Shown: positions 3,527 through 45,471 of the stretch, piece after piece
How the letters are laid out: each line of letters starts with the position of its first letter
Numbering within the stretch: position 1 is the first letter of the stretch
Sequence record: NC_073065.1
From: Escherichia phage vB_EcoS_Zar3M
DNA: 45,901 nt
Reading direction: 5' to 3' (one strand)
Translations under genes and position numbers: made by a program
The notes under the pieces: generated by a model
What the model saw: the letters and a program-made list of their open reading frames with translations, nothing else
Told to the model about the DNA's origin: nothing
Database searches by the model: none

Positions 3527-4669
3527 ATGCACCCGCAAACTAAAATCACCGACGAGCAATTGATCGCCGAGTTGCAATCCGGCNCNNCCNCGAAANANAT
3601 TGCGAANAANTANGGTNTTTCCCNCCNAAATGTCTACATGCNAAAANCCCNCCTGTCGAANAAAGGTNTTGGTCNCGGNAANGANGCCGTAANCCGNAAG
3701 CGNGTTGCNGNNGGNTTNGGNGTTAAGNGTGTCNCCNCCCTGGNGNGNGGAAANGGNGAAGAGGTCATGTNGNGGGTTATCACTGAGCAGGACAAGGAGC
3801 GCCAGCTTGAGGCAATGCGCGCCGTTGTCGAGGGTATGAACAGCGAAATCAAACCGGCAGCACCCGTAAGCGCCCCGCCGGTCCCGATCCATGCGCTCGA
3901 CCTACTCAACCTGTACACCGTGTCCGACTTCCACCTGGGCATGTTGGCCTGGGGCGAGGAGACTGGCGAAGACTGGGATATGGCGATTGCCGAAGACCTG
4001 TTCTACCGCTGGTTTGTCGAAGCCTTCGCACGCGCACCGGACGCAGGCACTGCCGTAATTAATATCCTCGGTGATATGGCCCACTTTGATAGCCTCGATG
4101 CCGTCACTCCCGCCAGCGGTCACGTACTGGACGCGGATACCCGCTACCAGAAACTGGTCCGATACATGATTCGCATGGTGCGCAACGTGGTAGACCTGGC
4201 GCTGCAGAAACACCACAAAGTCAAACTGCTAATCGTCCAGGGGAATCATGACGAGTCGGGCATGATTTGGCTGGCTGAAATGTTCCATACTCTGTACGAG
4301 AACGAGCCACGCGTCGATGTGGATACGTCCCCGGACGTATACAAAATGGTGCAGCACGGCAAGACCACGCTGTTCTTCCACCACGGGCACAAAGCGCGCT
4401 TCGATGCCATCGAAACCGTCATGATTTCAAAATTCAGACAGGCTTTCGGGTCCAGCGAGTACAGCTACGCGCATGTAGGCCACTTGCACCACCAGAAGAT
4501 TGTAGAATCCCGCAACATGATTGTTGAACAACACCGGACCCTCGCAGCGAAAGACGCATATGCCAGCCGCGGCGGTTGGATGTCCGGTCGTAGTGCCAAC
4601 GTAATCACCTATAGCGCCAACTACGGCGAAGTAGCGCGCCTGACCATTAGCCCGGAAATGTTGAAATGA
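3527..4669 (+). CDS. metallophosphoesterase (calcineurin-like) with N-terminal HTH-like extension
   Basis: Calcineurin-type motif series DFHLG, GDMAH, QGNHDE, HHGH, GHLHH; N-terminal ~60 aa (ITDEQLIAELQSG...) looks like a helix-turn-helix; n-masked patch 3586-3775. Confidence 0.7.
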   Translation: MHPQTKITDEQLIAELQSGXXXKXIAXXXGXSXXNVYMXKXXLSXKGXGXXXXAVXXKXVXXXXXVKXVXXLXXGXXEEVMXXVITEQDKERQLEAMRAVVEGMNSEIKPAAPVSAPPVPIHALDLLNLYTVSDFHLGMLAWGEETGEDWDMAIAEDLFYRWFVEAFARAPDAGTAVINILGDMAHFDSLDAVTPASGHVLDADTRYQKLVRYMIRMVRNVVDLALQKHHKVKLLIVQGNHDESGMIWLAEMFHTLYENEPRVDVDTSPDVYKMVQHGKTTLFFHHGHKARFDAIETVMISKFRQAFGSSEYSYAHVGHLHHQKIVESRNMIVEQHRTLAAKDAYASRGGWMSGRSANVITYSANYGEVARLTISPEMLK

Positions 4670-38741: not shown

Positions 38742-38769
38742 TATTAAAAAGCCCGCATTAAGCGGGCTT
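38742..38769 (-). terminator. intrinsic terminator (- strand) after DUF2815 gene
   Basis: On - strand AAGCCCGC-TTAAT-GCGGGCTT followed by TTTTTAATAG. Confidence 0.55.
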
Positions 38770-38787: not shown

Positions 38788-39573
38788 TTAACGGCGGCGA
38801 CGTTTACGTGGTGCTTCGTCTTCGTCGTCTTCGTCCTCATCTTCGTCATCGCGGGNCTTGCGGCGTTTGCGAGGTTTTTCATCTTCCTCATCGTNGTCGT
38901 CATCGCGGGGCTTGGATTTCTTGGACTTGCGCGGCTTGTCATCCTCATCATCGTCATCACGACGTTTTGACTTCTTAGCCTTGCGCGGTGCTTCGTCTTC
39001 GTCGTCGTTGTCCAGGTCTTCGTCGGAACATGAAGACCCGCCACCTCCGAAGGCTTCGCCGTCTTCACGGAATCGCAGACCCAGCAAGCCCGCCCCGAGT
39101 CCCTTGCCGTTGGTATTGTTCCACGCCCAAATATCAAGTGACACGTTGCAATAACAACCGGAGTAGATCTCCTGGCCTTCGATCTCGTCGCCTTCTACGG
39201 TCAGACCTTGTTCAGTCTGCTTCTCGCCGAGTGACGTTTGAATGATAGGCTGTTTGAACGATTTGGCGTTGATATACAACATGCCTTCGAATTCTTCGGT
39301 AACTTCATCGCGCTCGTCGCCGTCGCGAACTGCACATTCCTTAGAATCCTGGGCGTAGTGGCGGTCCATCCACTTATCGGCATTCTTCTCAGATTTCAGC
39401 TTGTCGGTGAGCACTGCACGCGCTGCCGCTTCCACTTTGTCCACCTGCGGATCTTCTTTATCAAGAAGAATCACGGCACGGTATGCCGGTTTTTGTCCAT
39501 CCTGTTTAGGGGTATCACGTTCCCAAATTTTCAGGAAGCATACGCGCACATTTTTCAGGTTGNCTTTANCCAT
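38788..39573 (-). CDS. DUF2815-type phage SSB-like protein with charged repeat C-terminal tail
   Basis: N-terminal region resembles DUF2815 proteins found beside DUF2800 and PolA in phage replication modules; C-terminal ~90 aa alternate acidic runs with KPRKSKKSK-type basic blocks. Confidence 0.55.
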   Translation of the reverse strand: MXKXNLKNVRVCFLKIWERDTPKQDGQKPAYRAVILLDKEDPQVDKVEAAARAVLTDKLKSEKNADKWMDRHYAQDSKECAVRDGDERDEVTEEFEGMLYINAKSFKQPIIQTSLGEKQTEQGLTVEGDEIEGQEIYSGCYCNVSLDIWAWNNTNGKGLGAGLLGLRFREDGEAFGGGGSSCSDEDLDNDDEDEAPRKAKKSKRRDDDDEDDKPRKSKKSKPRDDDXDEEDEKPRKRRKXRDDEDEDEDDEDEAPRKRRRR

Positions 39574-39663: not shown

Positions 39664-39906
39664 TCAAGCATTTTCATTAAAAAGATTTCTGGTAACGTAG
39701 TTGGTGGTGTTNTCNNNCCNNCTTAACGGNGGGNGGNCNCCATGTCTCGCGATCCACGCCACGGCAATGGTGCTGTAACCATCGTCCAGCCATTGGGTTG
39801 GATGACGAATCATCCAGGCCACCATTAAGACGCCTTGCACGCAATGCAGGATAAAGCCCAGCGCGCCGAGCAAAAACATCAATAAGATTGCGAATACTTT
39901 ATTCAT
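39664..39906 (-). CDS. small membrane protein (80 aa)
   Basis: Two hydrophobic segments (VFAILLMFLLGALGFIL, VLMVAWMI); start overlaps DUF2800 stop by 8 nt (ATGAATAA); n-masked 3' end. Confidence 0.35.
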   Translation of the reverse strand: MNKVFAILLMFLLGALGFILHCVQGVLMVAWMIRHPTQWLDDGYSTIAVAWIARHXXXXPLXXXXNTTNYVTRNLFNENA

Positions 39907-41329
39907 TGCTTAAGTCCTCGTCAGTAGCTACAGACCACGCAGGGCGCGGGTCGTCGATGGGTGCTAATACCGGTTTAGCGGGTGCGCGCGTGATTTTATC
40001 ACACAACTTTGCCCACACTTTCGGCTTCTCGTCCTTCAATACCTTCTCGGCATCAGTAGGGCTGAGTAATGTTTCTTTGTACATCACGTCGCGCTTGATC
40101 CGGGCCTTCGTGAAGATCTCAATCACTTCGCTCTCGTCCGCCCACTTGCGGATTCCTTCCTTACCGGCAACCATCTTGAGGCCCAGCGATTCNCCATCAC
40201 CCNCCATTACGGCCTTNAACNCCGCGGNCNCGANAGCCTTGNTNTGNTGGCGCNTTGNGNCAANACCTTCANAANCCTTNCGCNGTTCCNCCNCNCCCAN
40301 NGCNCNGGGGGGGNCTTTTTTTTTNCCCCNCTCCCCNCGNGGNNCCCCTTTGGGGGNTNNGGGGGCCATNTTGNGGNCGTGATTGGCGCATTCTTCCTCT
40401 GTCGAAATACTCACGTCGTCGCCCAGGTCTTCGTCTGTTGCCGTTGGTGGGGCCATAGTGTCGATTGCAGCCTTAGCGCGGGCGCTACACTGATCCGCAA
40501 ATCTGCACCATTGACACGCATCAACGCTCGGTCGGAAGTCGGCACGGGTGAGTCCCTTTTTGCCGCGGTCGTACGCTTCCAGGGCGGCGATAGCACGCTT
40601 GGACGCAAACTTCGCGAATATCTCCAGGGCTTCTACCGAAATATCCCACTCCGACGCCCCGCCGCAATACGGCTGGAAGATAACCAGGCGCACGGTCGTA
40701 ATGTCGTACATAGTTTTCAGCTTGCGCAGCAGGCCCAGCGCATACAACATAAGCTGTTTGTTTTCTTTCGCCTCGACCTTATGCCGCCCCGTCTTCAGGT
40801 CGCCAACAATCAGCATGTACGTGCCGTCGGTCTTCTTCATGACCATGACCATATCCGCAGTGCCGAACGTCTTAACCCGGTTGCCGTCGATCTCGAAGCC
40901 AGAGTGTAGGACGCGGGTAAGATCGGCGCGCATCTCAAGCTGAACAAACTCCGCCACTTCGAGGAGCGGTCGCCAGTGGTCGATGTATGCGTCGCACTGT
41001 TTCACCATGTCGTCGTTGACCAGCACGCCGCCTTTCGGTGCTTTCGGGTGCGCCTTCACCGGCCCCTTACCTTCGTTCTCGACGTAACACCCTTTGTACG
41101 TCTTCGCGGTTATCAGCTTTTCACCGGCGATAATGCGGTTGAGCACGACTTCAGATACAGTGTGCATACTCGTACCGTTAATCGCCGCTTGCCCGGATTC
41201 GTTCGGGATACCTTGTTCTACCACCAGGGCGGCTGGGCAACCCATCCATTTTTTAGCACCGGATGGGCCGAGTAATGAATGCTCCGTGTTGCTACCGGAT
41301 TGCGTTTTACGTTTTGGTTTAATCGCCAT
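39899..41329 (-). CDS. DUF2800-type PD-(D/E)XK nuclease (Cas4-like, Cys cluster)
   Basis: N-terminal LLGPSGAKKWMGCPAA and C-terminal CQWCRFADQC Cys cluster, as in Cas4/RecB-like phage exonucleases. Confidence 0.65.
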   Translation of the reverse strand: MAIKPKRKTQSGSNTEHSLLGPSGAKKWMGCPAALVVEQGIPNESGQAAINGTSMHTVSEVVLNRIIAGEKLITAKTYKGCYVENEGKGPVKAHPKAPKGGVLVNDDMVKQCDAYIDHWRPLLEVAEFVQLEMRADLTRVLHSGFEIDGNRVKTFGTADMVMVMKKTDGTYMLIVGDLKTGRHKVEAKENKQLMLYALGLLRKLKTMYDITTVRLVIFQPYCGGASEWDISVEALEIFAKFASKRAIAALEAYDRGKKGLTRADFRPSVDACQWCRFADQCSARAKAAIDTMAPPTATDEDLGDDVSISTEEECANHXXXMAPXXPKGXXXGEXXKKKXPPXXXXXXEXXKXXEGXXXXRXXXKAXXXAXXKAVMXGDXESLGLKMVAGKEGIRKWADESEVIEIFTKARIKRDVMYKETLLSPTDAEKVLKDEKPKVWAKLCDKITRAPAKPVLAPIDDPRPAWSVATDEDLSNE

Positions 41330-41517
41330 TATTCCACCCTTGAAAATTGAGCAATGTAATAGTCGTGTTTAACATTGGCCCGCTTCGCGGCTTCGTTCAT
41401 GGTAGCCGCCAGTCCTCGAGCTTGCATCCAGCAGCAATTCCAGTTTTGATTCATAACAATTTCTGGTTGCTCGTCGCCGGTAATACGGCAACGAAATAAA
41501 ACAAAGAATATAGCCAT
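41329..41517 (-). CDS. hypothetical protein (62 aa)
   Basis: Short ORF in operon context; stop overlaps DUF2800 start. Confidence 0.3.
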   Translation of the reverse strand: MAIFFVLFRCRITGDEQPEIVMNQNWNCCWMQARGLAATMNEAAKRANVKHDYYIAQFSRVE

Positions 41518-41769
41518 TTATTTTGTCTCCCAGCGGTCAATTGTTTTTGCTTCGGATGCAACTGCGAAGCGAACATATTCCAGATTGGAATCCGCCCAAA
41601 TATAAAAGTCGGGGTTAGTAAAGGTGGTGCGCTTAATTTGCGCGGGGGTGTTACGGCGTTTATCTATTACGGCAACGCGTGACTGAAAGCTGCCGATGCG
41701 TTCGAATAGCCAATAGTACGGGCGCTGGTCGCGGGAGTCCACCGCCTCGATTAGCGTGAAGCGTGCCAT
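41518..41769 (-). CDS. hypothetical protein (83 aa)
   Basis: ORF with AGAGGACGAGACAATG start context immediately after a terminator. Confidence 0.4.
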   Translation of the reverse strand: MARFTLIEAVDSRDQRPYYWLFERIGSFQSRVAVIDKRRNTPAQIKRTTFTNPDFYIWADSNLEYVRFAVASEAKTIDRWETK

Positions 41770-41782
41770 TGTCTCGTCCTCT

Positions 41783-41809
41783 AAAAATAGGCCCGCAGAT
41801 TAGCGGGCC
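41783..41809 (-). terminator. intrinsic terminator (- strand)
   Basis: On - strand GGCCCGC-TAATCT-GCGGGCC followed by TATTTTT. Confidence 0.5.
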
Positions 41810-41817
41810 GGAATATA

Positions 41818-41943
41818 TTAATCTTCACCGCCGAGTTGTCTATAAACCTCGTCCGGGTCGTCGCCTCTTTCTTCGCAGAAGGCGGTGAACGCCGCCCAAT
41901 TTTCTGCTATGAAATCGAGCATGATTCTCATTTCATAGTCCAT
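41818..41943 (-). CDS. small acidic hypothetical protein (41 aa)
   Basis: Unlisted ORF MDYEMRIMLDFIAENWAAFTAFCEERGDDPDEVYRQLGGED between acidic repeat protein and terminator. Confidence 0.25.
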   Translation of the reverse strand: MDYEMRIMLDFIAENWAAFTAFCEERGDDPDEVYRQLGGED

Positions 41944-41947
41944 GATA

Positions 41948-42463
41948 TTAATCTTCCAGTTCGAAATAGGTTTCGACGATTTCTTTTAGCTCTTTGTGGA
42001 AGTCTTCGACGTCGTCATCTTCCAGCTTGGCGATTGATTTGATCTCGAACGATTCCAGCAGGTCGTCGAATTCGTCGTTCGCATCGTCGTCATCACCACC
42101 GGCGATAATCGCGGCATACTGTTTGATTTCGTCGCGCATCTCCGCCAGCGGATCGGCATCTTTCTTACCTTTGCCTTTCGCCGGTGCTTTCTTAGACTTA
42201 GCCGGTTTTTCGTCTTCGGCATCGTCGTCGTCATCTTCTACGACTTCTTTTTTAGCCTTACCTTTCGCCGGTGCTTTTTTAGCTTTAGCCGGTTTTTCGT
42301 CTTCGGCGTCATCGTCGTCATCTTCGACAACTTCTTTTTTGGCCTTAGACGGCTTCTTGTCTTCCTGTTTACCAACGGCAGCGCCAACGGTTTCATAATG
42401 CTTTGCAATGGTTTCCAGTGCTACTACGCCGCGAGTGATCAGGTTTACGATTTGCTCAAACAT
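41948..42463 (-). CDS. highly charged tandem-repeat protein (171 aa)
   Basis: ATG at 42463 with GGAGATATACATG; contains a 2x tandem repeat KKEVVEDDDDDAEDEKPAK(A/S)KKAPAKGK (DNA direct repeat about 60 bp at 42200-42330) plus acidic C-terminal region. Confidence 0.5.
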   Translation of the reverse strand: MFEQIVNLITRGVVALETIAKHYETVGAAVGKQEDKKPSKAKKEVVEDDDDDAEDEKPAKAKKAPAKGKAKKEVVEDDDDDAEDEKPAKSKKAPAKGKGKKDADPLAEMRDEIKQYAAIIAGGDDDDANDEFDDLLESFEIKSIAKLEDDDVEDFHKELKEIVETYFELED

Positions 42464-42699
42464 GGTATATCTCCGATTGGTTAAGTTTAGGTGTCGGCAG
42501 TTAACTTCGTCGGTGGCCTTAACATATTGCCAGGTTACGCGTTCTCCCGTTCGGGTAGTGGACCTGGTTATATAATCACGGTTGGGAATCCTGACACTTC
42601 GATCCGGCCCCTGCGTTGCCCCTCTCCAGTTTGCGTCCTGCATCCTGTCGACGGAGTGAATGATAGATTGGTTGGAGGAGGGGTGTCAACAACTAATTT

Positions 42700-42754: not shown

Positions 42755-42795
42755 AGACGGGAATTATTATTACACGCGTGCGCGACCGTTTCAAT
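42755..42795 (-). promoter_or_regulatory. sigma70-like promoter (- strand) firing into the terminator at 42700-42734
   Basis: On - strand TTGAAA-N17-AATAAT; predicted start about 50-60 nt upstream of the T10 tract. Confidence 0.35.
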
Positions 42796-42866: not shown

Positions 42867-43196
42867 ATGAATATCAAAGAAGCAATTGAAGTGTTATCTA
42901 ATGCAATCCGCGGCGAAGCGGGTAAATCCTGGTATTACACAAATGCGGTGGATACTCTGTTATTTGAAGTCGTCCGATTACGCAGTGCTGAGAAGGAGTT
43001 ACGCGCGAAGCTGGAACTACTCAATGGTACGGCAGCCAGCAAGCTGCAAAAGCANAATGAAGAAATGGAAGAATACAAAAAGCAGGTTATCCGTTTGCGC
43101 GACGAAGGGAAATCATGGGCGATGATTGCAGAGCTAACCGGAATTAATCAGAGCACCGTGCGATCCTGGGTACGCAATAATAAAACCTCTAAGTAA
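42867..43196 (+). CDS. helix-turn-helix DNA-binding regulator (109 aa)
   Basis: C-terminal HTH-like GKSWAMIAELTGINQSTVRSWVRNN; N-terminal coiled-coil-like region; first gene of + operon. Confidence 0.5.
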   Translation: MNIKEAIEVLSNAIRGEAGKSWYYTNAVDTLLFEVVRLRSAEKELRAKLELLNGTAASKLQKXNEEMEEYKKQVIRLRDEGKSWAMIAELTGINQSTVRSWVRNNKTSK

Positions 43197-43206
43197 GGNA
43201 ACGGCA

Positions 43207-45471
43207 ATGNGCTTAATTAAATTCGCAGTAANACGACCCGCTAAAAAAGGNGAAAAAGCCAGGGCGGAAAANTTCCAGATGACTACCGATGAGTTTTTCG
43301 AATTTATCAACGATGCGAAAGAAATCTCCTCGGTGCATATCAACAAGACGGAAGATAAAGCGGAGTATGCGCGCCGCAAGCGTAAGGCCGATGGCATTGT
43401 GGCTTATACCAGTGATGGGCTGCGCCGCAAGACCAGTGCCGTGGATCGCTCGATCCTGTTCTTCGATATGAACCGTACCGACACCCGCACCTTGCGCCGC
43501 TGCCGTAAGGCGTTCATCGACGCGGGTCTTGAACACGTATTTCACACCACCACCGGCGACCGCCACCCGCTGAAGGGCGGCACGCGTTGCGCCCGTTTCC
43601 TGGTGCTAACGGATAAGCCCGTACCGGCGGAAGACCTGGGCCGCGTACAGTATGCACTATTACACCAACTCGGCCTGTCAGATGTGGACTTCGATGATTG
43701 CACGAAAGACACAAACCGCCTTATGTACCTGCCTCACCNGCAATCGGTTGTTAAGTGTCACTACGGCAAACGTGCCCGCGTCCGTCGTCTGATTCGCCTG
43801 GCGGATAAGCNGGGNGNGGAAAAAGAGGAAGTACGCCGCGAATTAACCCAGGGCGATGACGGCGTGGNGGACGGCATTNTGGNTTGGTGNTTCCAGGNAG
43901 GATTCGAACCGCTGTCGTCCGGTCGTGGTTATGAAGTGCCGTGCCCGAACGAACACCTGCACAGTGGTGAAGGGTCCACCGCTATCATGGTCAAGGATGG
44001 CGAGATCCGTTTCAAGTGTATGCACACTGGCAACGAGTGTTGCTCGGAACTGAACAGACACCAGCACCTGGCGCTACGTCTTATCGGGATACCGGACCAC
44101 CTGAACGTCGAACCACACAACATGTCTCGTAAGCAAATCGCCGCCATTCTCCCCGGACTGGACGACGAGGAAGTGGAATCGTGCTATGCGCATATAGTTG
44201 ATGCGGTCGGTGACGGCGACGAGTACGGCGTATGTACCGACGCGGACCTGGATAACGAACCGGTCGCACTGTTCAGTAAGCACGACCCGATCATCGAGGG
44301 GTTGATTAACTTCAAATCGACCTGGTATATGGCTGGCGAATCGAACATCGGTAAATCGTTCTACGTGCTGGGCCAAATGGGTGCGGTTGCCNCGGGGATT
44401 CCGTTCGGNGGTGCGAAGGTCGTCCAGTCTCATTGCTTCTATTTCGACGCGGAAGGTGGTGAAGCCTCCAACCAGCGTAAGGAAGCATTGCAGATCAAAT
44501 ATGAGCACGACCTGGACAAGCTGCACATTATCGATCTGCAATCACGCGGCTGGGATATCACCAGCAAATCCGGCTTGCGTGAAGTTATCAGCTTCATCAA
44601 CCGCACCGCTAACGGCGAACCGGTTGGCCTGGTGGCCTTCGACTCCCTCAACCAGACTGTTGCGTTGCGGTCCGCCGATGCTAAACCGTTCGACGAGAAC
44701 AACGCCAGCGATATGGGTGAAGTGGTCAAAGCGCTGAAGGCCATTGCGGAAAAGACCGGCGGCAGTGCTGGCGTCATCCACCACCCGGCGAAGGGCGCAA
44801 ACGGCAGCAGATCCCCCCGCGGGTCCGGCGCGCTGCATGGTGCTGTTGATTCTGCGTTCTTCCTTGAGCAACCGGACGACAACCAGCCGGGCCAGTTGAA
44901 CCTGTATCACGAAAAGGCACGTAACGGCATCAAGCAAGCGCCGCGCGGCTTCGTCCTGCTCAAGTGCAAGGTTAAGGNGGATCTCCGCAAGNCCGAAGCG
45001 TTCGAAGCCCNCCAGTCCNCCNGCACCGGGCCGGACTTTGGCGACGTCGTTGCCGGTTGGGACGTCAAGCCAATTGCCTCCACGCCACGCGACGAGACTC
45101 TTTACCTCGTNCCGGTCGCCCTGGCNCCGTTCNCTNTTGAGNNGGNGAAGGCCGNGGGNAAANNAGCCGTTAANNAANAAAANNCCNCNGGACCNCGCAA
45201 NNAGAAANANAAAGTGCTTTATGCGGCACTGGAAAAACTGATGGAAGATAACCCGGACCATACCGGATTCAGTAAATCGGCAATTGTCCGCCAGGCTGGG
45301 CTTGCGAAAGGGGGCACATCGACGAAGGCAATAGACGATATGGTGGAGCGCGGCGTGCTAGGTTTTTATACAGATCCGCACACTGGGGCCATCTATGGGT
45401 CGTCGAATATCGTCATCAAAACAAATATACCCATCACGCTTTCGGCGACCGATGATGATTTAAAAGATTAA
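43207..45471 (+). CDS. primase-helicase (primase-like N-terminal domain, zinc-binding region, P-loop RecA/DnaB-like ATPase)
   Basis: Cys/His cluster CPNEHLH...CMHTGNEC; Walker A GESNIGKS and Walker B-like LVAFDS; N-terminal domain has phage/plasmid primase-like features; several n-masked patches. Confidence 0.7.
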   Translation: MXLIKFAVXRPAKKXEKARAEXFQMTTDEFFEFINDAKEISSVHINKTEDKAEYARRKRKADGIVAYTSDGLRRKTSAVDRSILFFDMNRTDTRTLRRCRKAFIDAGLEHVFHTTTGDRHPLKGGTRCARFLVLTDKPVPAEDLGRVQYALLHQLGLSDVDFDDCTKDTNRLMYLPHXQSVVKCHYGKRARVRRLIRLADKXXXEKEEVRRELTQGDDGVXDGIXXWXFQXGFEPLSSGRGYEVPCPNEHLHSGEGSTAIMVKDGEIRFKCMHTGNECCSELNRHQHLALRLIGIPDHLNVEPHNMSRKQIAAILPGLDDEEVESCYAHIVDAVGDGDEYGVCTDADLDNEPVALFSKHDPIIEGLINFKSTWYMAGESNIGKSFYVLGQMGAVAXGIPFXGAKVVQSHCFYFDAEGGEASNQRKEALQIKYEHDLDKLHIIDLQSRGWDITSKSGLREVISFINRTANGEPVGLVAFDSLNQTVALRSADAKPFDENNASDMGEVVKALKAIAEKTGGSAGVIHHPAKGANGSRSPRGSGALHGAVDSAFFLEQPDDNQPGQLNLYHEKARNGIKQAPRGFVLLKCKVKXDLRKXEAFEAXQSXXTGPDFGDVVAGWDVKPIASTPRDETLYLXPVALXPFXXEXXKAXXKXAVXXXXXXGXRXXKXKVLYAALEKLMEDNPDHTGFSKSAIVRQAGLAKGGTSTKAIDDMVERGVLGFYTDPHTGAIYGSSNIVIKTNIPITLSATDDDLKD

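Follow-up and report, generated by a model that had tools for sequence, protein, structure and literature searches.

The gene analyzed in this work lies at positions 41948-42463 on the minus strand of Escherichia phage vB_EcoS_Zar3M (sequence record NC_073065.1; the 45,901-nucleotide (nt) stretch of DNA analyzed is referred to as the window) and encodes a 171-amino-acid (aa) protein of PHROG 3127. As modeled, the protein is composed of three modules: a hydrophobic N-terminal helix, a disordered charged linker and an acidic three-helix C-terminal domain (C-domain). The tandem repeat in the linker, to which an earlier note made from the sequence alone had drawn attention, is only a variable spacer, a point overlooked in that note; conservation, and probably function as well, resides in the N-terminal helix and the folded C-domain. 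The reading favored here, tentatively and at a probability of roughly 40%, is that the family protein serves as a stoichiometric DNA-associated adaptor or hub of the phage replication/recombination module. The gene, its ribosome-binding site and the modules of its product were located as follows, with model confidence given as predicted local distance difference test (pLDDT) values.

41948-42463, minus strand: coding sequence (CDS) of the 171-aa protein (stop codon 41948-41950), from the list of open reading frames (ORFs); equals PTXU06_00061 / QBQ80498.1; PHROG 3127.
42470-42474, minus strand: Shine-Dalgarno sequence GGAGA, read from the sequence, 6 nt 5' of the ATG at 42463.
42383-42463, minus strand: N-terminal amphipathic helix, residues 1-27 (MFEQIVNLITRGVVALETIAKHYETVG); AlphaFold2 helix over residues 2-27, pLDDT ~50-57.
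42152-42382, minus strand: disordered polyampholyte linker, residues 28-104; pLDDT ~40, no secondary structure.
42159-42347, strand not assigned: tandem DNA repeat encoding a duplicated 29-aa linker unit; period 87 nt, 2.2 copies, Tandem Repeats Finder score 294.
41951-42151, minus strand: acidic three-helix C-domain, residues 105-171, ending in ...TYFELED; AlphaFold2 residues 105-167, pLDDT ~90.

The 171-aa ORF is a genuine gene and is core in Dhillonvirus. Its product is 100% identical to PTXU06_00061 of the Dhillonvirus phage vB_EcoS_PTXU06, annotated there as a hypothetical protein, and matches phrog_3127, a profile of unknown function, over its full length, with an expectation value (E) of 3.7e-54 (residues 1-171 aligned to positions 1-178 of the 178-position profile). 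Some GenBank records use a 231-aa start (e.g., EE09_56), which was judged an over-extension because homologs in other genera begin at the same methionine as the 171-aa ORF. Annotation anomalies of this kind were seen among P0001, P0055, P0066, P0069 and P0073, several records starting the gene 60 codons early (231-239 aa) and a few metagenomic copies being frameshifted within the repeat.

Structure prediction and disorder analysis, both proposed in the earlier note, were carried out with AlphaFold2 using two different alignments, one of them deeper, and gave the same picture both times, a disordered linker and a folded C-domain. The acidity that the note had assigned to the C-terminus was borne out (net charge -21 for residues 102-171, -22 for the whole protein), but it belongs to a predicted folded three-helix domain and not to a tail. 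The N-terminal helix was not docked on the C-domain in the models, that from the deeper alignment included. This helix is very hydrophobic, with about five of every seven positions apolar and polar residues spaced with a period of 7; in the family consensus, MLDKFLALLERFVVAHELIAANS, positions 3-4, 10-11 and 16-17 are the only ones at which polar residues recur. It is nearly invariant in Dhillonvirus and reads MLxKFLALLERFVVAHELIAANS in other genera. Because some five of seven heptad positions are apolar, the pattern suggests burial of the helix in an oligomer or in a partner protein. The linker is built of units in which an acidic run (EVVEDDDDDAEDE) is followed by a K/A/P-rich basic run (KPAKxKKAPAKGKxKK); it carries 22 K/R and 22 D/E, for a net charge of 0, and its charges are segregated (kappa ~0.47, z = 6.5 against shuffled sequences). 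On inspection by eye, the GGDDDDANDEFDDL loop did not fit the EF-hand pattern, the N-terminus did not fit the beta-clamp motif QL[SD]LF, and the C-terminus did not resemble the tip of proteins that bind single-stranded DNA (SSBs).

A direct repeat of about 60 bp had been reported in the earlier note. The repeat itself was recovered both by Tandem Repeats Finder and by a separate repeat search, which returned two 87-nt copies at 86% identity, and its length was thereby corrected to 87 bp. The unit corresponds to 29 aa, KKEVVEDDDDDAEDEKPAK(A/S)KKAPAKGK(A/G), and units compared in register differ at 10 of 87 nt, amounting to eight synonymous and two non-synonymous codon differences. An assembly artefact, which had been considered, would yield identical copies; since these copies differ, mostly at synonymous sites, and independent genomes hold one, two or three units, the repeat was concluded not to be one. 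The predominance of synonymous differences likewise indicates, as judged from the sequence, that the duplication is old and that the protein sequence has been kept by purifying selection. The three units of phage SM_A2 are only 1-4 nt apart, which indicates a recent expansion. The suspicion that the repeat is prone to slippage agrees with what is seen among relatives, which vary by whole units (0-3 acidic blocks) and by small in-frame insertions and deletions (indels), three of 105 clusters being frameshifted inside the repeat; the variation in unit number and the frameshifts are consistent with slippage or unequal recombination.

The 105 clusters, all of them Dhillonvirus-like, were obtained from a homolog search of 5.8 billion proteins, and the comparison of repeat copy number among related phages that had been suggested could thus be made: relatives carry 0, 1, 2 or 3 units between almost invariant ends (none in P0098, one in P0018 and three in SM_A2, for example). 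The first 30 and last 70 residues are >90% invariant in these clusters. Linker length ranges from 19 to 83 aa, with two main size classes (37-54 and 62-83), and the number of acidic blocks per linker, counted in 101 clusters, is zero in 6, one in 41 and two in 54; SM_A2 has three. Across the same 101 clusters the linker has a net charge of -0.13 +/- 2.9, regardless of its length. Because the linker varies while the ends stay so nearly invariant, the conserved information was placed in the two end modules. Variants lacking any acidic block (P0082, P0094) occur in apparently complete genomes of ~44 kb. In the KS_S9 ortholog (L003 601-1230), a 37-residue tandem duplication (KDADPLAEMRDEIKQYAAIIAGGDDDDANDEFDDLLD) lies inside the folded C-domain.

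The window represents the genome of a Dhillonvirus (an HK578/SO-1-like E. coli siphovirus) and is collinear, coordinate for coordinate and without indels, with that of PTXU06 (MK373789). It contains 577 scattered N, and positions 41500-42654 are without any difference from PTXU06, while the flanks are 4-10% different. Given the scattered N and the PTXU06-identical stretches beside divergent ones, the window appears to be a reference-guided consensus (or one of a mixed population), and the repeat copy number in the Zar3M sample may for this reason have been inherited from the reference. N-dense patches (e.g., 1881-1967, 3584-3773, ~40150-40330 and ~45000-45250) fall where the DUF2800 nuclease and the primase-helicase have variable charged segments.

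The family extends well beyond Dhillonvirus. A profile of the C-domain, run against 1.84 billion representatives, retrieved only 41 sequences of 31-267 aa (50% identity level, E <= 0.001), and a second homolog search with the C-domain alignment added little. Full-length members are ~90-270 aa long and for the most part share the N-terminal helix and the charged linker; in every complete sequence the domain forms the very C-terminal part. The distant representatives P0110, P0114 and P0115 contain two complete C-domains each. The Guernseyvirinae-type branch comprises 1,042 clusters at 90% identity, and its members match phrog_3127 too, with more distant members falling into other PHROGs of unknown function; by tblastn, members were found in Jerseyvirus, Kagunavirus, phiEap-2, and Hafnia (Enc34-like), Edwardsiella and Serratia phages. 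The relatives in PHROG 3127 (PTXU06_00061, Sodalis phage SO-1 gp46, Ent1 gp41, K1ind1 ORF34, Edwardsiella phage eiAU gp46 and MB78 Q9T1Z8) match the profile over their full length, have the same helix, charged linker and acidic C-domain, and are likewise encoded upstream of DUF2800 nuclease and DNA polymerase A genes. Members are often labeled "13.88 kDa late protein" after Salmonella phage MB78 (Q9T1Z8); a literature search for this label returned genome announcements only, so that it is an inherited name not traced to data, and a search for "phrog_3127" returned no result. No family at or near threshold was found in Pfam, NCBIfam or PADLOC with the 171-aa protein or the distant members. In the Protein Data Bank (PDB), the only sequence matches of the C-domain profile were de novo designed helical bundles, which were attributed to composition and not to homology.

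Nearly all members have one acidic plus basic unit directly before the C-domain; six Dhillonvirus clusters have the basic block only. The basic blocks differ among branches, being K/A/P-rich in the Dhillonvirus branch, where the unit is often duplicated, and of the KPKRKPR or AT-hook-like KRGRK type in the others. In distant members an AT-hook-like KRGR(P/K) motif occupies the position of the basic run (P0105, P0134, P0136, P0140 and P0145-P0147), and it occurs twice in Serratia phage Tsm2, in which such a unit has been duplicated independently.

Published proteomics of the Dhillonvirus phage EE09 bear on the expression of the gene. Only four phage proteins were detected in infected cells at 25 min, namely CDS29, CDS40, CDS56 and CDS61 (PMC10673088); CDS56 is the ortholog of the 171-aa protein and CDS61 is the DUF2815 SSB. 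The EE09 cell-free lysate, as distinct from purified virions, yielded 24 proteins that included 16 of the 17 annotated structural ones but not CDS56 (PMC10673088). From its detection in infected cells and its absence from the lysate set, the family protein was taken to be abundant and non-structural. The same two results speak against its being a known structural component, which had been entertained at the outset, and contradict the label "prohead core protein", carried by one record (vB_EcoS-UDS3lw) within the inconsistent public annotation of this gene.

The position of the gene is conserved in distant phages. At all six loci examined (Dhillonvirus PTXU06/jat/EE09, Ent1, phiEap-2, Tsm2, K1ind1 and metagenomic contig L008), it lies upstream of the genes for a DUF2800 PD-(D/E)XK nuclease and DNA polymerase A, and at most of them it is first in the block. 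In the two genera with annotated terminators, Dhillonvirus and Jerseyvirus, the gene is followed by a terminator. In the gene orders below, HTH stands for helix-turn-helix and RHH for ribbon-helix-helix.

Dhillonvirus: HTH gene and then primase-helicase in one direction; in the other, family gene, 41-aa ORF, terminator, 83-aa ORF, 62-aa ORF, DUF2800 PD-(D/E)XK nuclease, 80-aa ORF, DUF2815 SSB, terminator, 56-aa ORF, DNA polymerase A.
Jerseyvirus vB_SenS-Ent1: Dhillonvirus-like order, terminator directly 3' of the family gene.
phiEap-2: Dhillonvirus-like order.
Serratia phage Tsm2: Dhillonvirus-like order.
Metagenomic contig L008 (member 31% identical): RHH regulator in one direction; in the other, family gene, small ORF, DUF2800, DUF2815, further genes, polymerase A, SNF2 helicase.
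Kagunavirus K1ind1: family gene, small ORF, ProQ-C-like gene, DUF2800, polymerase A.

When the whole K1ind1 genome was searched by tblastn, no DUF2815 SSB was found (best E = 0.95); the ProQ-C-like gene takes a place in the module instead, and the primase-helicase was present. The constant neighbors of the family gene are thus the nuclease, the polymerase and the primase-helicase, and not the SSB.

An adaptor or DNA-associated role was favored for a core gene whose ends hardly vary, which keeps its position in distant phages, and whose basic blocks are replaced in distant members by AT-hook-like ones. As proposed, the N-terminal helix would self-associate or dock on a partner and so confer multivalency. 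The K/A/P-rich blocks, which are histone H1-like, would make low-specificity contacts with DNA, tempered by the adjoining acidic blocks, a part that AT-hook-like KRGRP motifs would play in distant members. The acidic C-domain would bind a basic surface of its partner, for which the candidates are the polymerase, the primase-helicase, the DUF2800 nuclease, the arginine-rich tail of the SSB or a host DNA-binding protein, and the repeat copy number would do no more than set the flexible arm's reach and valency.

Several points weigh against such a role. DNA binding by the basic blocks is suggested by composition and motifs only. The Dhillonvirus protein lacks an RGR motif or RGRP core, and the Pfam AT_hook model matches only 2 of 44 members, below threshold. 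A net charge of -22 speaks against strong binding to DNA, unless something else engages the acidic parts. The N-terminal helix is a low-confidence prediction, and oligomerization through it is putative. The SSB tail is not an obligatory partner, since K1ind1 has the family protein without DUF2815, and an obligatory pairing of the two was rejected. RecBCD inhibitors such as lambda Gam and T7 gp5.9 are just as typically linked to a nuclease/annealase module. Finally, the promoter-like sites upstream of the gene, listed below, are of a kind no more frequent than in shuffled sequence.

Several known proteins resemble a DNA-associated adaptor of this kind. The defining features of HMGA proteins are repeated basic AT-hooks and an acidic region beside them, and in CarD the AT-hooks can be exchanged for H1-like K/A/P domains (PMC2919716). 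With HMGA, the C-terminal domain of myxobacterial CarD and histone H1 tails, the family shares repeated basic blocks, a flanking acidic region, disorder and abundance, and an architectural or adaptor role would be common to them; AT-hook and H1-like versions appear, from their sequences, to be interchangeable within the family, as in CarD. The HMGA/H1-like layout was found in the 171-aa protein itself, whose K/A/P-rich KPAKAKKAPAKGKAKK blocks alternate with the acidic blocks along the disordered chain. The resemblance is nevertheless one of composition and layout and not of homology, and the family protein differs in having a folded acidic three-helix domain and alternating blocks. PHROG 3127 is already catalogued, and the architecture of the family varies known themes of charged adaptors and mimics; it is not a categorically new system.

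The earlier note had listed DNA mimicry and anti-restriction among the possible functions. In this account, which we consider possible although on balance doubtful, the acidic three-helix domain, perhaps made multivalent by the N-terminal helix, would sequester a host DNA-binding protein. By analogy with lambda Gam and T7 gp5.9, RecBCD would be the most plausible target; restriction enzymes and nucleoid proteins (e.g., H-NS) are further candidates. T7 Ocr, T7 gp5.9 and lambda Gam are, like the family members, small, very acidic, abundant and helical phage proteins, and Gam and gp5.9 stand beside recombination/nuclease genes: lambda Gam adjoins exo/bet, and T7 gp5.9 is encoded between genes 5 and 6. 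The negative charge concentrated in residues 102-171 would serve a decoy well, as would the conservation of acidic positions across the family (GD-D..D.FDDLLEEY...DEDV), and abundance in infected cells is as expected of a stoichiometric inhibitor. The gene is moreover always linked to the PD-(D/E)XK nuclease and, in most lineages, to a gp2.5-type SSB/annealase, and no other RecBCD inhibitor was identified in the examined part of the window, a neighbor labeled "nuclease inhibitor gamma" being an HTH protein by Pfam. Set against these points, typical anti-restriction genes are usually accessory and fast-evolving, whereas the family gene is core; no sequence or fold similarity of the family protein to known DNA mimics (Ocr, ArdA, Gam, gp5.9) was detected, and these, unlike the family protein, are without long lysine-rich disordered linkers.

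The two small Dhillonvirus proteins that have been characterized, one an anti-defense and the other a trigger protein, were compared as possible equivalents and ruled out. Anti-Tmn ORF35, which some Dhillonviruses lack, has a beta-sheet at its C-terminus and a linker of 12 aa (PMC11846954), and Ksap1 is a 74-aa protein encoded between methyltransferase and phosphatase genes (PMC11564622).

The charged C-terminal tail of the DUF2815 protein, which had been described as an echo of the 171-aa protein, was examined next to it.

38788-39030, minus strand: tail of the DUF2815 / Enc34-type SSB (CDS 38788-39573; PF10991, E = 1.1e-30 for the oligonucleotide-binding (OB)-fold part).

The echo is real. 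The tail consists of four units, each an acidic run followed by (A/K)PRK or xPRK plus a basic stretch, and closes with a terminal RKRRRR; its charges are segregated (kappa ~0.58, z = 10.3 against shuffled controls). Alternating acidic and basic units recur in the SSB tails of Ent1 (one unit; L005 8256-8882), phiEap-2 (two; L006 6519-7199) and Tsm2 (three; L009 7407-8132), compared with four in Dhillonvirus, and a basic cluster forms the end. The DUF2815 homolog of contig L008 has a classical, purely acidic tail, as do Enc34 ORF6, a gp2.5-type SSB (PMC5686142), and T7 gp2.5. Tails of the acid/arginine kind are atypical for gp2.5-type SSBs and may mark a change in autoregulation or in partner binding. 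With the acidic tails of T7 gp2.5, E. coli SSB and Enc34 ORF6, the 171-aa protein shares an acidic protein-protein interaction module, a flexible tether and a place in a replication module. It differs from these SSBs in having no OB fold (its model is all-helical or disordered) and no match to PF10991 or another SSB family, and its acidic module is folded and ends in ...YFELED instead of a terminal aromatic/hydrophobic residue.

In another reading, the family protein would form an electrostatic condensate scaffold, a nucleophosmin-like oligomer whose acidic/basic arms end in the acidic three-helix domain and which would coacervate with the DUF2815 SSB tail on DNA. Such a scaffold would concentrate replication/recombination proteins, and repeat copy number would be an evolvable dial for its valency. 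Nucleophosmin (NPM1) has an oligomerization module, disordered acidic/basic tracts and a C-terminal three-helix bundle, and its partners carry multivalent arginine-rich motifs; the likeness is one of layout only, without homology. NPM1 differs in its core, a beta-sandwich pentamer, and in its C-terminal bundle, which is a basic one that binds nucleic acid. The strong charge segregation in both phage proteins is consistent with a condensate, as are their joint presence among the four phage proteins detected in infected cells, the occurrence of acid/base units in both proteins in Dhillonvirus, phiEap-2, Ent1 and Tsm2, in numbers that vary independently, and the neutrality of the linker at any length. 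The case nonetheless consists of composition and analogy, K1ind1 has no DUF2815, L008 keeps the family gene beside a purely acidic SSB tail, and acidic-block-free variants occur in apparently complete genomes (P0082 and P0094, above), so that we regard a condensate scaffold as rather improbable.

The transcription signals and small ORFs around the gene in the window were as follows; UTR stands for untranslated region.

41790-41809, minus strand: intrinsic terminator found by scan, seven G-C pairs and then a run of T; also in the PTXU06 annotation, with -17.2 kcal/mol.
38751-38767: second terminator, after the SSB gene.
41818-41943, minus strand: acidic 41-aa ORF (MDYEMRIMLDFIAENWAAFTAFCEERGDDPDEVYRQLGGED; phrog_15754, E = 1e-24), between the gene and the terminator and co-transcribed; annotated in PTXU06 and jat.
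42660-42689, minus strand: sigma-70 promoter-like site TTGACA-18-TATCAT (11/12), a consensus match; the 5' UTR would be ~190 nt.
42766-42794: second promoter-like site TTGAAA-17-TG-AATAAT, a consensus match.
42867-43196, plus strand: 109-aa HTH protein, for which Pfam gives only a C-terminal helix-turn-helix (HTH_23 / Sigma70_r4_2).

The placement of the gene at the head of the replication operon, as the earlier note had it, is essentially correct, but the strong terminator at 41809-41790 splits the gene and the 41-aa ORF from the genes downstream; it closes a short leading transcription unit before the nuclease, SSB and polymerase genes. The 171-aa and 41-aa ORFs end in the same 12-nt string, GAAGATTAATAT, which forms a direct repeat (41815-41826 and 41945-41956). 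The 109-aa HTH protein is probably a small regulator transcribed divergently from the 171-aa gene. Its GenBank labels vary ("DNA recombination nuclease inhibitor gamma", "transposase", "resolvase"), and the Gam label is apparently unfounded, HTH being all that Pfam returns. The divergent intergenic region is without notable iterons.

This arrangement, in which a promoter-like site, a leader of ~190 nt and the gene are followed by one strong terminator before the nuclease and SSB genes and by another terminator before the polymerase gene, is that of a first gene after an early promoter, upstream of terminators that need read-through, and would suit a transcription regulator or antiterminator like lambda N. 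The gene-terminator order recurs in Ent1, and the protein is largely disordered, as is N. It is, however, strongly acidic and without an arginine-rich RNA-binding motif; the leader (42464-42655) is not more structured than shuffled sequence (z = +0.96) and gave only sub-threshold noise against Rfam. High abundance better suits a stoichiometric binder, and the terminators after the family gene and the SSB gene would fit graded expression, with stoichiometric proteins in excess over enzymes, equally well. Antitermination was accordingly considered very unlikely.

A virion or assembly component, such as a prohead core or scaffolding protein, can for practical purposes be dismissed: although one record is so annotated (vB_EcoS-UDS3lw) and charged, partly disordered proteins occur among scaffolds, the gene belongs to the replication module and is remote from the head genes, its ortholog is not among the 24 EE09 lysate proteins that include 16 of the 17 annotated structural ones, and PHROG 3127 has no functional assignment.

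Two enzymes of the module showed features of their own. In the DUF2800 nuclease (39899-41329, minus strand), a Cas4-like cysteine cluster (C...CQWCRFADQC) precedes a charged segment that is variable (ARRAKRGKKEA... in PTXU06); the C-terminal extension that comes next, which lies outside Pfam coverage, is conserved. The Ent1 DNA polymerase (L005 8940-12038) is annotated with an intein, and the Dhillonvirus polymerase of the window is without one.

The gene is core in at least 153 Dhillonvirus genomes, and the family comprises more than 1,000 clusters across Guernseyvirinae and phages related to them, a group that includes many under study for therapy against E. coli and Salmonella. Errors of assembly and annotation are likely at its repeat, examples in databases being the frameshifts, the 60-aa N-terminal over-extensions and the "prohead core protein" label. 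The natural variants with zero to three units provide a ready series for relating the length and valency of a disordered linker to function. Should the acidic C-domain prove to be a decoy for a host DNA-binding protein, the family would represent a new class of inhibitor. The identity of the partner of the family protein would clarify how the common Enc34/gp2.5-type replication-recombination module works.

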